Shown here piece by piece: positions 1 to 4,278 of a stretch of 4,278 nucleotides of DNA. This DNA comes from a virus (lineage: Duplodnaviria > Heunggongvirae > Uroviricota > Caudoviricetes): the IMG/VR virus record IMGVR_UViG_2531839104_000018, one strand, 5' to 3'. The notes beneath the pieces were generated by a model. The model was not told the origin of the DNA, did not search any database, and saw only the letters and a list, made by a program, of their open reading frames with translations. Position 1 is the stretch's first letter. Every line of letters begins with the position of its first letter. Both the position numbers and the translations under genes were made by a program.

Positions 1-92
1 CCCCGTAACAGCAGTACCGCACACAGCAGCGCTATCATGATCGGTCGCCAGAAGCGGTTCAGACTTTCGGCAAATCGTAGCGACATAACCAT
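1..92 (-). CDS. Probable spanin (Rz-like inner-membrane subunit), 5' end only; runs off the left edge
   Basis: A minus-strand frame opens after a TGA at 95-93, with in-frame ATGs at 92, 86 and 38. Translation is MVMSLRFAESLNRFWRPIMIALLCAVLLLRG, i.e. Arg-rich N-terminus followed by a hydrophobic stretch, as expected for an N-in signal-anchor protein. It overlaps the 3' end of the endolysin gene, as lysis genes often do. True start is ambiguous and only about 30 codons are visible. Confidence 0.35.
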   Translation of the reverse strand, partial: MVMSLRFAESLNRFWRPIMIALLCAVLLLR

Positions 93-559
93 TCATCCGC
101 CGAACGGCGGGCCTCAAGGCCGGGGAGCTTCACCCCCTTTGAATAAATCCAGCGGATATACTGCTTACAGGACGCGGGCATCTGCCCGGCATTGATCAGG
201 CGCAGAAGCGTGGAGTTGCGAAAGTTCGTTTCACCGGCCCAGAAGATCCACGAAGCCAGCGCCACCGTCTGACCACGGGTAAGCGGCACCTGAACACGCC
301 GATCAATGGCCGCAAAGGCCCATTTCATGTCCTTTTCCAGTAGTTCCAGGCATTCTTCATCCGTCAGGGTCATACCCGGTTTCACATCCGGGCCGGTATG
401 GCCGTAACAGATGGTGGGTGTACCGGTGGGATCGATATACGTGGAGTTTTCTTTCCCTTCCCAGTAACCGGTGTAATGCGTGGCAATCGTGAACGTCCCG
501 GCACCGGCCAGAACAAGGGCAATCAGCTTTTTACGCAGTGGTGCGGGGAGTTTTGGCAT
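59..559 (-). CDS. Endolysin, T4-lysozyme-like muramidase (GH24) with N-terminal SAR (signal-anchor-release) domain
   Basis: 166-aa ORF with ATG at 559. Catalytic spacing matches T4 lysozyme E11/D20/T26: E-x8-D-x5-T inside WEGKENSTYIDPTGTPT. N-terminus KKLIALVLAGAGTFTIATHY is a Gly/Ala-rich weakly hydrophobic segment typical of SAR endolysins (P21 R, P1 Lyz, Mu Lys). Motifs CYGHTGPD and AAIDRRVQVPLT resemble Mu-type endolysins as I recall them. Confidence 0.85.
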   Translation of the reverse strand: MPKLPAPLRKKLIALVLAGAGTFTIATHYTGYWEGKENSTYIDPTGTPTICYGHTGPDVKPGMTLTDEECLELLEKDMKWAFAAIDRRVQVPLTRGQTVALASWIFWAGETNFRNSTLLRLINAGQMPASCKQYIRWIYSKGVKLPGLEARRSADEWLCRYDLPKV

Positions 560-560
560 T

Positions 561-598
561 GTTACGCTGTCTCATGATGTTCTCTGAGTCAGCGTAAC
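561..598 (-). promoter_or_regulatory. Dyad symmetry / potential RNA stem-loop abutting the endolysin start codon
   Basis: Perfect 9-bp inverted repeat gttacgctg (561-569) / cagcgtaac (590-598), extendable to 14-bp arms with one mismatch (ctca/tgag) around a 10-nt loop. On the mRNA the 3' arm ends 1 nt before the endolysin AUG, and no clear Shine-Dalgarno is visible. Could be a translational control hairpin or an activator binding site. Confidence 0.4.
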
Positions 599-630
599 GG
601 TGAAGGAAAGGCGGCAGGCTTTGCGGAATA

Positions 631-1056
631 TCAGAAAAGTGGCGGTTGTGTTCTTGCCAGATGCAGACGGCGCTGTTCACGTATGACGGTATAAATCTGG
701 GTTTCTGACATCCGGTAATGGCGGCGAAGGGATTCAATTTTCTCGCCCCGGTCCCAGCGCGAAAATATCTCATTGTTTCGCAGCTCGGCAAAGAGAGATT
801 CCCCGACCGGCAGGTAATAACCCCGTCCGCCCATATAGGCTGCCTGAGCCGCAGCCACCTTGCGTGCCAGTTTGCCGGCCAGTACCGGCTCAATCCCCTG
901 ACGCTGAAGTTCTGCGCCGGTGACTTCAACCAGTTCTGACAGGGTCCGCGGCCAGTTCTTTTTGAGAACATCATCAGGGATGTCATCAAGGCGGTCGATA
1001 AGGGCGTGCAGTTGCTCACTGTCACCACCAAACATGCTCATCTGAGTTTCTGCCAT
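631..1056 (-). CDS. Mor/C-family transcriptional activator (Mu middle/late gene activator family)
   Basis: 141-aa ORF, ATG at 1056 preceded by GGAGG 5-6 nt upstream. C-terminal half AYMGGRGYYLPVGESLFAELRNNEIFSRWDRGEKIESLRRHYRMSETQIYTVIREQRRL matches the recalled Mu Mor signature (GG..Y.P.G..L...R...I...F.G.N..EL...Y.....T.Y..IR..RRL) with a C-terminal HTH. It sits immediately upstream of the endolysin, as C does in Mu. Whether it is the Mor or the C equivalent cannot be decided from sequence alone. Confidence 0.75.
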   Translation of the reverse strand: MAETQMSMFGGDSEQLHALIDRLDDIPDDVLKKNWPRTLSELVEVTGAELQRQGIEPVLAGKLARKVAAAQAAYMGGRGYYLPVGESLFAELRNNEIFSRWDRGEKIESLRRHYRMSETQIYTVIREQRRLHLARTQPPLF

Positions 1057-1087
1057 ATCAGCCTCCGGTTCTCGCGTTCCCGGTAAG

Positions 1088-1121
1088 TTTAAAATAAAAA
1101 TCCCGCGTTGTGGCGGGATTT
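1088..1121 (-). terminator. Rho-independent terminator between the GemA-like gene and the Mor/C-like gene
   Basis: Minus-strand RNA reads AAAUCCCGC-CACAAC-GCGGGAUUU followed by UUAUUUU. This is a perfect 9-bp GC-rich stem (plus strand 1098-1106 / 1113-1121), 6-nt loop and U-rich tail, starting 5 nt after the GemA-like stop codon. Confidence 0.7.
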
Positions 1122-1125
1122 GGGG

Positions 1126-1635
1126 TTAACGGGGAAGTGATTTTTCATACTGCCTGCAAACGGCGTCATACCCCATCAGCGTGCGTTCGGGCATTCCCAT
1201 CGCGGCCAGCATTTTGCGGCGGTGCCATCGCTTGAGACGCTCCAGCACATCTGAGGCCAGGGCGGGGTGTTGCTCCAGCCACTGCCAGTTTGCCACACCT
1301 TCGCCGCCGTTTTGCGCGGCCGTCTGCGATTTCACCCAGCGGTTAAGGGCGGTTTCCGCACCATCAGAGATAAAGCCCTGCCGGTGCATCACCTTCCAGA
1401 TGGCGCGAATTTTAGCGGTCACCGTACCCGGTTTTAAGGCCCGGTTAACCGGGTTCTGACGCACTTTAAAACCGCGTTTTTTGAAAACATCCAGCACGCG
1501 GGATAACTCATCCGGTGACATATCCCGGCAGCTGGTTTTGCCGGTGACCGCCAGTAGTACGGATGTGTAGGTTTCATCATCCAGGGCAAGCTCGCGTTTT
1601 GCCACATGAATGGCAGATATCAGTTTCCCTCTCAT
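1126..1635 (-). CDS. gemA: GemA-like protein (Mu gp16 family, formerly DUF1018)
   Basis: 169-aa ORF. N-terminus LISAIHVAKRELALDDETYTSVLLAVTGKTSCRDMSPDELSRVLDVFKKRGF matches the recalled GemA signature (IHIAK.QLGLDDDTYR.LL...GK.S...M...EL..V...L...GF). ATG at 1635 overlaps the upstream stop as ATGA. Position just upstream of the Mor/C-like gene matches Mu gene order. Assignment is from memory of the family, not from a search. Confidence 0.65.
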   Translation of the reverse strand: MRGKLISAIHVAKRELALDDETYTSVLLAVTGKTSCRDMSPDELSRVLDVFKKRGFKVRQNPVNRALKPGTVTAKIRAIWKVMHRQGFISDGAETALNRWVKSQTAAQNGGEGVANWQWLEQHPALASDVLERLKRWHRRKMLAAMGMPERTLMGYDAVCRQYEKSLPR

Positions 1636-1928
1636 GCTGTATCAACACTCCTGCGGATATGATAGGTATTATTTTCCCGATCGAGCTGAACCCGATACTC
1701 CGGAGGAATCACAAAAATATTAAAACCATCATCAGTTTTTATTCTTGAGTAGCATTCCCCCTTATGATATCTGGCCAGTGCATTAATCAGAGAAGTCGCA
1801 GCCTGCCCAATCAGGTATTTTTTATGAAAAATACTGATAACTTTCCGGCACAGCCATCGTGTAATGACGAATGCACCGAAAAAGGATGTGATATATAAAT
1901 ACCAGAACAACTGCGAACTACTGTCCAT
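1632..1928 (-). CDS. Hypothetical small membrane protein (98 aa), in the low-GC block
   Basis: ATG at 1928 with strong SD AAGGAGA 7 nt upstream. Predicted N-terminal transmembrane helix FWYLYITSFFGAFVITRWL. Stop overlaps the GemA-like start (ATGA). Local GC about 40 percent versus about 60 percent in flanking genes. Confidence 0.5.
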   Translation of the reverse strand: MDSSSQLFWYLYITSFFGAFVITRWLCRKVISIFHKKYLIGQAATSLINALARYHKGECYSRIKTDDGFNIFVIPPEYRVQLDRENNTYHIRRSVDTA

Positions 1929-2115
1929 TATCTTTCTCCTTATTCAGTCTTCTGCGGCATTCGGCACAGTCATCAGGGCTTTCAAATGTATCCGGCTCGC
2001 GATTATGAGCCAGATATAACCACCGTCCACATATACTGATATTTTCGCCTGTTTTAAAAAAATGATGCTTCCTGGCCATTAGTGGCCGCGCCCATCCAGC
2101 GGGTAGACTATTCAT
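1918..2115 (-). CDS. Hypothetical small Cys/His-containing protein (65 aa)
   Basis: ATG at 2115 with strong SD GGAGGA 8 nt upstream. Contains C29, H37 and a C50-x2-C53 pair (ICGRW...DDCAECRRR), which might form a small zinc-binding fold. Overlaps both neighbours by a few codons. Confidence 0.45.
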   Translation of the reverse strand: MNSLPAGWARPLMARKHHFFKTGENISICGRWLYLAHNREPDTFESPDDCAECRRRLNKEKDNGQ

Positions 2116-2443
2116 TTGCTTTATCCTCCATGCTGGACAGAATCATATGTATTAATGTCGGGCGTGGAGATATACGCATTTCATTAAGCGTCTGAAGGGC
2201 AGCAACAGCTGCCTGTTTATCGGTGCCTTTGGCAATTTCAGCAAGAGAATGCACAATCCATAATGGGCTTAACGCTACGGCTGAATGCAGAATCATGTCA
2301 TCCATAATAATTTCTGGCATATCCCGTTTGTCACATTCTTTATCCATAAAAGAAACGATTTTTTCTGCATCTTCCGGTTTCATGCCTCCGGCGATGAGAA
2401 TTTTACGATATTCATAAGACGATCTTAATTCAATACTCATCAT
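2108..2443 (-). CDS. Hypothetical protein (111 aa)
   Basis: ATG at 2443 (second ATG at 2440) preceded by AGGTGA. No recognisable motif. Lies in the low-GC block (about 37-42 percent GC). Confidence 0.5.
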   Translation of the reverse strand: MMSIELRSSYEYRKILIAGGMKPEDAEKIVSFMDKECDKRDMPEIIMDDMILHSAVALSPLWIVHSLAEIAKGTDKQAAVAALQTLNEMRISPRPTLIHMILSSMEDKANE

Positions 2444-2455
2444 TCACCTGCCTGT

Positions 2456-2848
2456 TTAATCAGTTTCCAGTGCTTTGCTACGGGCAACAGCCTCACACTC
2501 AAAAAATACCGACTCCGGCACACGCTCCTTTAATTCACGAACAAGAAAATCATTAACGAGTTCATGACGTCTTATATTTCTTTCCTTTTCCTCCTGGCGC
2601 AATACAGCAAGGCGGTATTCAACAGTCCGGCGTTGTTTCTGAAAGACAGCCAGTGCTTTTCTGGCAGAGTTACGCAATGTATCATCGCCACAGGGTTCGT
2701 ATTCAAGCTGAAATTTAATCTCTTCAATGGTTTCTTTTATTTTTGCCAGCAAGCTAAGACAGTCGCTGATTGTCTTCAGTTTTTCATTATCAATATAACT
2801 TCTCACGCATTCACCTCCCGTCATTCCGGTAAAGCTGAAATATGGCAC
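2456..2848 (-). CDS. Hypothetical charged, probably helical protein (130 aa from GTG 2848, or 122 aa from ATG 2824)
   Basis: GTG at 2848 is preceded by AGGTGA 7 nt upstream. Alternative ATG at 2824 forms an ATGA overlap with the upstream stop. Translation is rich in K/E/R runs (KETIEEIKFQLEYE, LRQEEKERNIRRHE), suggesting helical or coiled-coil character. Confidence 0.5.
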   Translation of the reverse strand: MPYFSFTGMTGGECVRSYIDNEKLKTISDCLSLLAKIKETIEEIKFQLEYEPCGDDTLRNSARKALAVFQKQRRTVEYRLAVLRQEEKERNIRRHELVNDFLVRELKERVPESVFFECEAVARSKALETD

Positions 2849-3132
2849 CAGTGCGTCACCTGTCCGTCCTCATCTTCAAGGCAGGCTCCGGTTTCTTCAT
2901 CAATAAAAAAGCCTTCATACCCCATATGGCCGATGCGCAGTTCCTGTTGGTCACCATACTGAACAATCAGCACGACAGCCTCCATATCAGGCGGGAAAGC
3001 ATCATTCAGTGAATGCCAGGGATAACCGCGCAAATCCCCGAAATAAACACCGGTCAGCGTTCCGCCACAGACCGGCATTCCGACGGCACACACAAGGGGT
3101 TCATCTGATTCAACAAATAATGTCGTTATCAT
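2821..3132 (-). CDS. Hypothetical highly acidic small protein (103 aa)
   Basis: ATG at 3132 overlaps the upstream stop as ATGA. By direct count the translation has 18 Asp+Glu against 2 Arg and no Lys, including the cluster FIDEETGACLEDEDGQ. Net charge is about -16. Confidence 0.55.
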   Translation of the reverse strand: MITTLFVESDEPLVCAVGMPVCGGTLTGVYFGDLRGYPWHSLNDAFPPDMEAVVLIVQYGDQQELRIGHMGYEGFFIDEETGACLEDEDGQVTHWCHISALPE

Positions 3133-3680
3133 GGCATTAATTCCCGTAATACAACATCTTCGGCAGTCCGACGACGGTGATAAATAAAACTCACCGTGCC
3201 CTCGGATAATTCAAATTTCTCGCCGATTTCCCTAAAGGTAAGACGCCGTGGTGATTCAGCATCCCGTAATTCACGAATAAGACGAACATCATCGTCAGGT
3301 ATGCGGGTGAAGGGCAGCAACTCTCCGTATTTTTTCATGCTTACGCCAATATATCGCGCCCGATTGTGGACAGAATCCCGGTCTCGCCCCAGATATTCTC
3401 CTATTTGCTTACCGGTCATTGTTCTGGCATTTTTTCGGATAAATTTATCTTCATCAGGTTTAAATCTGAGGCGTTTGCATTTGAGCAACTCCGGGTAAGT
3501 ACCGCGTAATAAAACAATCCGGTTATGTACACCCCAGAAACTTCTTTTTATCCTGACAGCAATATCCTTAACCGGGGTGGATGGATAAAGCGCAATCAGC
3601 AGCGCATCTTCTTCAGGTGTCCATGCGCGAACATGAGCGGGTGCACGGCCTTTTCTCCCCATGGGTTGTAATATCATCAT
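3129..3680 (-). CDS. Putative DNA-binding protein with tandem Myb/SANT-like HTH repeats (183 aa)
   Basis: ATG at 3680 preceded by GGGGGTGA. Two internal repeats align: WTPEEDALLIALYPSTPVKDIAVRIKRSFWGVHNRIVLL and FKPDEDKFIRKNARTMTGKQIGEYLGRDRDSVHNRARYI, sharing [WF]xP[ED]ED, a central K[DQ]I[AG] and VHNR. A third HTH-like segment is LTFREIGEKFELSEGTVSFIYHRRR. The W-x-PEED pattern resembles Myb/SANT repeats. Confidence 0.55.
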   Translation of the reverse strand: MMILQPMGRKGRAPAHVRAWTPEEDALLIALYPSTPVKDIAVRIKRSFWGVHNRIVLLRGTYPELLKCKRLRFKPDEDKFIRKNARTMTGKQIGEYLGRDRDSVHNRARYIGVSMKKYGELLPFTRIPDDDVRLIRELRDAESPRRLTFREIGEKFELSEGTVSFIYHRRRTAEDVVLRELMP

Positions 3681-3683
3681 GCA

Positions 3684-4028
3684 TCACCCCCTGACTCGCT
3701 TTTCAGCAGCATAAAACTCATCAGACAGAATTTCGGTCATTTTCTGATTTGCGGGTTTTACGCCGCACTCAAGGTAAATCACATCGTCAACGCAGAACCA
3801 CTTCACAGGGCCAAACATGATTGCCGAGAAATCAATACCCAGCCAGAACAACAGTGCATCGGTTCTGGCATACGTGACGGGCGAATATTCACGCCACAGA
3901 CTGTTAAGTTCGTCAGAGGCAACGCGCAGGGCTTTGGGAATACGTGATGTGCGCGGTGTGCAGCTCCAGCCATTCGACGCAGTCGGTTTTCGCCATAAGT
4001 CGCGATGAAAAGGATATTTGTCATCCAT
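3684..4028 (-). CDS. Hypothetical protein (114 aa); its 5' end and RBS lie inside the left arm of the inverted repeat
   Basis: ATG at 4028 with AAGGG about 12 nt upstream. Stop at 3684-3686 lies 3 nt upstream of the next gene start. No recognisable motif. First 24 codons (MDDKYPFHRDLWRKPTASNGWSCT) are exactly duplicated on the plus strand at 4206-4278. Confidence 0.5.
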   Translation of the reverse strand: MDDKYPFHRDLWRKPTASNGWSCTPRTSRIPKALRVASDELNSLWREYSPVTYARTDALLFWLGIDFSAIMFGPVKWFCVDDVIYLECGVKPANQKMTEILSDEFYAAEKRVRG

Positions 4029-4049
4029 AAAGCGCAGCCCTTTAAAACA
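3956..4049. repeat. Left arm of a perfect inverted repeat (at least 94 bp)
   Basis: Checked base by base: position p pairs with 8234-p for every p from 3956 to 4049. First mismatch is 4050 vs 4184. The outer limit is unknown because the partner of 3955 lies beyond the window end. Confidence 0.9.
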
Positions 4050-4184
4050 TCAAACCCTTCCGCGCTGGCCGCGTGGCAAAAATATCAGCAGGACTGCCAG
4101 AAAGTTAAGGATGAGGCAAAACGCCTTGAGGCCGTGCTGAATGTTGCGTGCCGGTCGGTATTTGTATCCGGTATCAGTGGCTTT

Positions 4185-4278
4185 TGTTTTAAAGGGCTGC
4201 GCTTTATGGATGACAAATATCCTTTTCATCGCGACTTATGGCGAAAACCGACTGCGTCGAATGGCTGGAGCTGCACAC
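4185..4278. repeat. Right arm of the inverted repeat; truncated by window end
   Basis: Exact reverse complement of 3956-4049. Arms are separated by a 135-bp non-palindromic core (4050-4184) that has no ORF in the six-frame track. Confidence 0.9.
4206..4278 (+). CDS. 5' end of a plus-strand gene whose first 24 codons mirror those of the 114-aa minus-strand gene; partial
   Basis: ATG at 4206 followed by codons for MDDKYPFHRDLWRKPTASNGWSCT, identical to the N-terminus of ORF 3684-4028, with the same RBS region because both lie inside the repeat. Whether the downstream sequence continues to match is not visible. Confidence 0.4.
   Translation, partial: MDDKYPFHRDLWRKPTASNGWSCT

Follow-up and report, generated by a model that had tools for sequence, protein, structure and literature searches.

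The long palindrome that closes this Mu-like prophage sequence is very probably a fold-back (snap-back) chimera, an artefact of sequencing or assembly rather than part of the genome of E. coli 97.0007. The window, that is, the whole stretch of 4,278 nt analysed here, is the entire contig ANMC01000017.1 (4,278 bp) of the draft assembly GCA_000316505.2 of this strain; the deposited contig is the exact reverse complement of the window, with the palindrome at the contig end. Comparison with complete genomes accounts for every base of the palindromic region by a single novel junction, in which one prophage locus is read up to a native 10-nt inverted repeat and then read back on the other strand.

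A perfect inverted repeat at the end of a prophage contig

An inverted-repeat scan and an independent recomputation both found that positions 3956-4049 and 4185-4278, each 94 nt long and separated by 135 nt, are 100% reverse-complementary, as the original prediction had described. A perfect repeat of 94 nt is far beyond chance, and the remaining inverted pairs in the window are all 17 nt or shorter. The symmetry is lost at the inner edges of the arms: T at 4050 would require A at 4184, where the window has T instead. At its outer edge, the right arm ends with the final base of the window. The repeat therefore does touch the window edge, as had been pointed out, but the accompanying suggestion that the arms might be longer did not survive a check of rightward extension: because the window is the complete contig, there is no sequence to the right into which to extend.

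Up to the end of the left arm, the window is authentic prophage, identical to the Mu-like prophage found in complete STEC genomes. Positions 1-4049 match 2402-6450 of the corresponding locus in E. coli O157 FDAARGOS_293 (NZ_CP022050.2, 2277850-2290299; hereafter L001) ungapped and with no mismatch, and represent the early/middle region of a Mu-like prophage with its genes on the minus strand. This prophage is of the type annotated as Sp18 in O157:H7 Sakai and occurs in about 230 of the 5,426 complete E. coli genomes, at a median copy number of one and a maximum of four. Genome annotation and Pfam labels identify genes for a lysozyme (59-559), Mor (631-1056) and GemA/gp16 (1126-1635), all on the minus strand. 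Also annotated on the minus strand are several small hypothetical genes and a gene encoding a 183-aa DNA-binding protein (3129-3680), which lies downstream of the gp12 homologue discussed below. The helix-turn-helix matches of this last protein were all sub-threshold (Sigma70_r4, 23.3 bits against a cutoff of 24.1, and an AsnC-type HTH), and it is named 'AsnC family protein' in one RefSeq record. The same Mu-like element was also found in two phage records, LC727881.1 and LC727895.1, with 96.7-97.7% identity, where it is labelled 'region of the inserted Bacteriophage Mu-like phage'. These records are genomes of Stx2c- and Stx1a-converting phages, so a transposable Mu-like prophage can land inside Stx prophages.

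The palindrome involves a gene that encodes a 171-aa protein in complete genomes (WP_000465562.1) and of which codons 51-171 and the stop codon occupy 3684-4049 on the minus strand. The protein is annotated as 'hypothetical' in complete genomes and had no match in a local Pfam profile search; we refer to it as a gp12 homologue because a precomputed match to PF26885 (Phage_Mu_Gp12) is on record and because its neighbour is gp11 (PF25754). In complete genomes, the gene order past gp12 is gp11, gam, B and A. On ANMC01000017.1 the gp12 homologue was called as a protein of only 114 aa (3684-4028, minus strand) that starts at an internal methionine, Met58 (ATG at 4026-4028). The left arm (3956-4049) is native sequence in its native place, and its content differs from what had been proposed from the window: instead of a ribosome-binding site and the first 24 codons of a protein, the arms contain internal codons 51-82 of the 171-aa gene, and the presumed start codon is Met58. 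Likewise, what had appeared to be two identical gene starts diverging from a common core is one gene read twice, once per strand.

A single novel junction at a native 10-nt inverted repeat

We scored three models derived from the native genome (native order, simple inversion and fold-back) against window 3600-4278, a total of 679 bases. Unaltered genome order agreed at 450 of 679 bases. Simple inversion of the 135 bp agreed at 595 of 679 and broke at 4195, 10 nt past the core. A fold-back model, which reads to L001 6450 and continues on the other strand from 6585 backwards, agreed at all 679. As the fold-back alone fits all 679 bases, there is only a single novel junction, and the long 'repeat' is the same DNA read twice, with one reading per strand. 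Consistent with this, the reverse complement of window 4040-4278 is exactly L001 6357-6595, and the parts of the window on either side of the junction come from opposite strands of one locus and lie close together. The core, or fold-back loop (4050-4184, plus strand), consists of gp12 codons 6-50, reverse-complemented relative to the left flank, and is not a promoter module; the right arm (4185-4278, plus strand) is a second, other-strand reading of the DNA in 3956-4049.

In complete genomes, the same 135 bp also adjoins position 4049, but in the opposite orientation, and the native sequence past it, AACATTACGCC..., spans the start codon of gp12 and the terminal part of gp11. The possible arrangements can thus be told apart by short diagnostic sequences: the fold-back junction reads GCGCAGCCCTTTAAAACATCAAACCCTTCC, the normal left and right junctions read GCGCAGCCCTTTAAAACAAAAGCCACTG and GGGTTTGATGTTTTAAAGAACATTACGCC, respectively, and an inverted core meeting the true right flank would be expected to read CAGTGGCTTTTGTTTTAAAGAACATTACGCC.

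The strand switch coincides with a perfect 10-nt inverted repeat in the native genome, CTTTAAAACA (L001 6441-6450) and TGTTTTAAAG (L001 6586-6595), with a 135-nt spacer. The gp12 homologue contains both copies, at codons 51-54 and 2-5, and its codons 6-50 make up the spacer between them. In the window, the first copy, at 4040-4049 (gp12 codons 51-54 on the minus strand), forms the microhomology zone of the switch, and the second, at 4185-4194, is its reverse complement. The sequence at 4185-4194 is also that of the copy at L001 6586-6595 (codons 2-5), and the two origins are indistinguishable here. We considered whether this repeat marks a special site and rejected the idea. The 12.45-kb locus contains five perfect inverted repeats of at least 10 nt (loops of 3-300 nt), compared with 2.89 ± 1.79 in dinucleotide shuffles (p = 0.155), a frequency in line with chance. 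Fold prediction for a single DNA strand ending at L001 6595 pairs its 3' end with the other copy, which is the geometry of a primer on a template. This predicted fold was no more stable than that of shuffled sequence (z = -0.92), and such ordinary hairpin stability does not mark the site as a hotspot.

The junction and its protein product in other genomes

The prophage is matched by 233 complete E. coli records, and the fold-back junction is spanned by none. All of them stop matching at 4049, all show one orientation only relative to the left flank, and none covers at least 80% of window 3600-4278. The two phage records with this Mu-like element also stop matching at 4049. A 30-mer across the junction had no exact match in species-representative genomes (one per GTDB species), JGI metagenomes or IMG/VR. 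The collections searched contain few draft E. coli assemblies, so the power of the search resides mainly in the 233 complete records and in an index of 15 billion proteins. In that index, the 91-aa product of the chimera was found on one contig only, and the normal 171-aa protein on hundreds.

The chimeric product is encoded by a spurious open reading frame (4005-4278, plus strand) that has been deposited as EKW85385.1 (UPI0002A41B54; 'E13 domain protein, partial', 91 aa). The N-terminal 11 residues (MKRIFVIHKAQ) are an antisense read-through of gp12 codons, and the rest corresponds to gp12 residues 2/3-81. In public protein collections, EKW85385.1 clusters with genuine gp12 homologues.

Three other contigs with a 114-aa call (L002, L003 and L005) were examined as candidate fold-backs or inversions and rejected, as two are nonsense mutants and one is a plain contig end. 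The two mutants have the normal orientation, come from independent Logan assemblies (DRR588653 and SRR28415098) and carry differing nonsense mutations (Q22 to TAG and W14 to TGA) in the N-terminal part of the gp12 homologue (L002 9690-9900 and L003 3126-3336). Both mutations fall within the first 57 gp12 codons, which accounts for the 114-aa call from Met58. The gp12 homologue may be able to do without its N-terminal part; alternatively, the gene may be undergoing decay in prophages.

Probable origin of the palindrome and competing explanations

The palindromic assembly artefact that had been listed among the possible explanations is the one we favour, given the fit at 679 of 679 bases, the microhomology at the switch, the position at a contig end and a junction unique to this contig. 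The chimera would begin with a single prophage strand ending at or near TGTTTTAAAG, at the start of the gp12 homologue. Its 3' end would anneal to the complement, CTTTAAAACA, located 135 nt upstream either within that strand or on its sister, and a polymerase, most likely an end-repair or amplification enzyme of library construction, would extend the annealed end and copy the flank backwards. The reverse complement of the contig does read L001 6357-6595 and then run backwards from 6440, as expected of snap-back from the copy at 6586-6595 onto that at 6441-6450 followed by extension. One or a few such reads may then have entered the draft assembly at a contig end. For a de Bruijn assembler, simple arithmetic suggests that an arm of 94 nt is what would be expected if a unitig ended one node short of the branch k-mer at k = 95.

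Chimeras of this kind are well documented. In sonication libraries, chimeric reads occur where inverted repeats are naturally present, with the intervening sequence inverted, and have been ascribed to end repair (PDSM model; PMC10908179). In FFPE material, artefactual chimeric reads form by annealing of short reverse-complementary regions, after which T4 DNA polymerase carries out the fill-in (PMC8458033). Among E. coli chimeras from MDA and 454 sequencing, 85% were inverted, mostly joining sequences less than 10 kb apart, and were primed on 2-21 nt of complementarity (PMC1855051). Fold-back artefacts are also on record for long reads (PMC12870357). The window resembles such artefactual reads in that its two segments derive from opposite strands of one locus 135 nt apart, the breakpoint coincides exactly with a 10-nt reverse-complementary sequence, the stretch between its two copies is inverted and the junction occurs in no independent genome. 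It differs in that artefactual fold-back reads are soft-clipped, whereas this chimera was fixed in a deposited contig and a deposited protein record. We found no paper on strain 97.0007 or on accession ANMC.

Some considerations count against an artefact. Most assemblers out-vote a single chimeric read, which would therefore not be expected to break a contig here. In addition, the left end of the contig (window 1, equivalent to L001 2402, in an endopeptidase/Rz-like gene) does not lie at any repeat boundary that would explain the isolation of this 4.3-kb piece. We considered a graph-based break at a repeat boundary there and rejected it, as the sequence is single-copy and uninterrupted in other genomes, with 231 of 232 complete-genome records running straight through. 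Several diverged prophage copies in strain 97.0007 could possibly lie behind the isolated piece, given that up to four copies per genome occur elsewhere.

A genuine inverted duplication in the 97.0007 culture, either fixed or in a subpopulation, would also produce the observed junction, although we consider it unlikely. In such a scenario, the strand would switch at the 10-bp repeat by template switching or snap-back priming, perhaps during replication of the Mu-like prophage or at a stalled host fork, and the early/middle region would be duplicated head-to-head around the 135-bp loop in sufficient abundance to be assembled. The junction geometry would be identical to that of the artefact, and an inverted junction at a short repeat does not discriminate between the two because it is common to both. 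Several observations are compatible with such an event. Short-read assembly would collapse true arms into one contig with just such a short palindromic end, and 4.3 kb of a prophage that is normally single-copy were assembled in isolation, so something unusual may affect the prophage in 97.0007.

There is also precedent for such events in vivo. Inverted duplications and triplications arise by template switching during lac amplification in E. coli, in which inverted template switches occur at 3-30 bp of microhomology (PMC3161906), and they are described for ODIRA in yeast (PMC4689423, PMC10766183). The window shares with the events described there a strand switch at a short inverted repeat, a head-to-head arrangement and a spacer that forms an asymmetric loop; unlike the window, those events involve copy-number gain, a second junction and selection. 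Against a duplication in vivo, the junction is missing from 233 of 233 complete prophage records and from all further collections examined. With copies of 10 bp, 135 nt between them and a frequency in line with chance, the repeat is moreover a poor substrate in vivo, and nothing beyond this one contig supports the head-to-head duplication that the original prediction had offered as its first option. Fixed rearrangements of this type are much rarer than chimeric reads, and from such base rates we infer that the chimeric molecule arose in vitro rather than in cells.

A true inversion of the 135-bp spacer alone, in one prophage copy or in a subpopulation, followed by an assembler choosing the wrong branch past the inverted spacer and walking back into the left flank, appears very unlikely. 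This reading predicts the left junction (4040-4060) exactly and agrees with the window through base 4194, and as some genomes carry up to four copies of the prophage, mixed alleles within one genome are conceivable. However, beyond the second repeat copy the window continues with 84 bases that correspond to the left flank in reverse instead of the true right flank, so an extra misassembly must be assumed. Published spacer inversions by template switching have spacers of a few bp, not 135 (PMC8604942). An inversion here would in addition destroy gp12 codons 6-50, and the inverted spacer was found in none of the 233 complete records.

The proposal of a promoter within the core, inverted by a recombinase so as to express either of two genes with a common N-terminus, is refuted on several counts, and we give such a programmed switch almost no weight. 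The one point in its favour is how the window looks, with perfectly inverted arms on either side of an asymmetric core. Site-specific inversion switches include the Gin/gix G segment of Mu, Hin/hix of Salmonella and fimS of E. coli, and the likeness to these is superficial, going no further than a Mu-like phage in which inverted repeats enclose a unique segment. Unlike in those systems, the flanks are not conserved: the right flank is replaced by the reversed left flank rather than being AACATTACGCC, and the inversion model fails at 4195. The native repeat spans only 10 bp and is no more frequent than expected by chance. The segment itself is coding, being codons 6-50 in the interior of one 171-aa open reading frame; the supposed common N-terminus is codons 58-81 of that same gene, and a single orientation is seen in the 233 complete records. 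Nor is a recombinase close by, which had been raised as a check: no serine or tyrosine recombinase was found among the open reading frames of the window or annotated in the surrounding 12.45 kb, where the only annotated recombination genes are those for Mu transposase A and B. Finally, hairpin ends of linear replicons are known to give palindromes at contig ends, but a covalently closed end read by the assembler as a fold-back is hardly credible here: in complete genomes the prophage continues past this position uninterrupted, with gp11, gam, B and A following; the middle of the structure is an asymmetric loop of 135 nt rather than a palindrome centre; and the annotation of the 12.45-kb locus includes no gene for a protelomerase.

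Collectively, these results suggest that the palindrome is most probably not real as a biological feature, and they illustrate how a single fold-back junction at a contig end can mimic an invertible switch or a duplicated gene start. The chimera has already introduced a spurious protein (EKW85385.1, UPI0002A41B54) into public databases. When a scan reports a long perfect inverted repeat, two questions should come first: does the repeat extend to a contig end, and is one arm together with its 'core' simply the neighbouring genome read backwards? Were the junction true in vivo, it would represent one more modest inverted duplication mediated by a short repeat in E. coli, a known kind of event.
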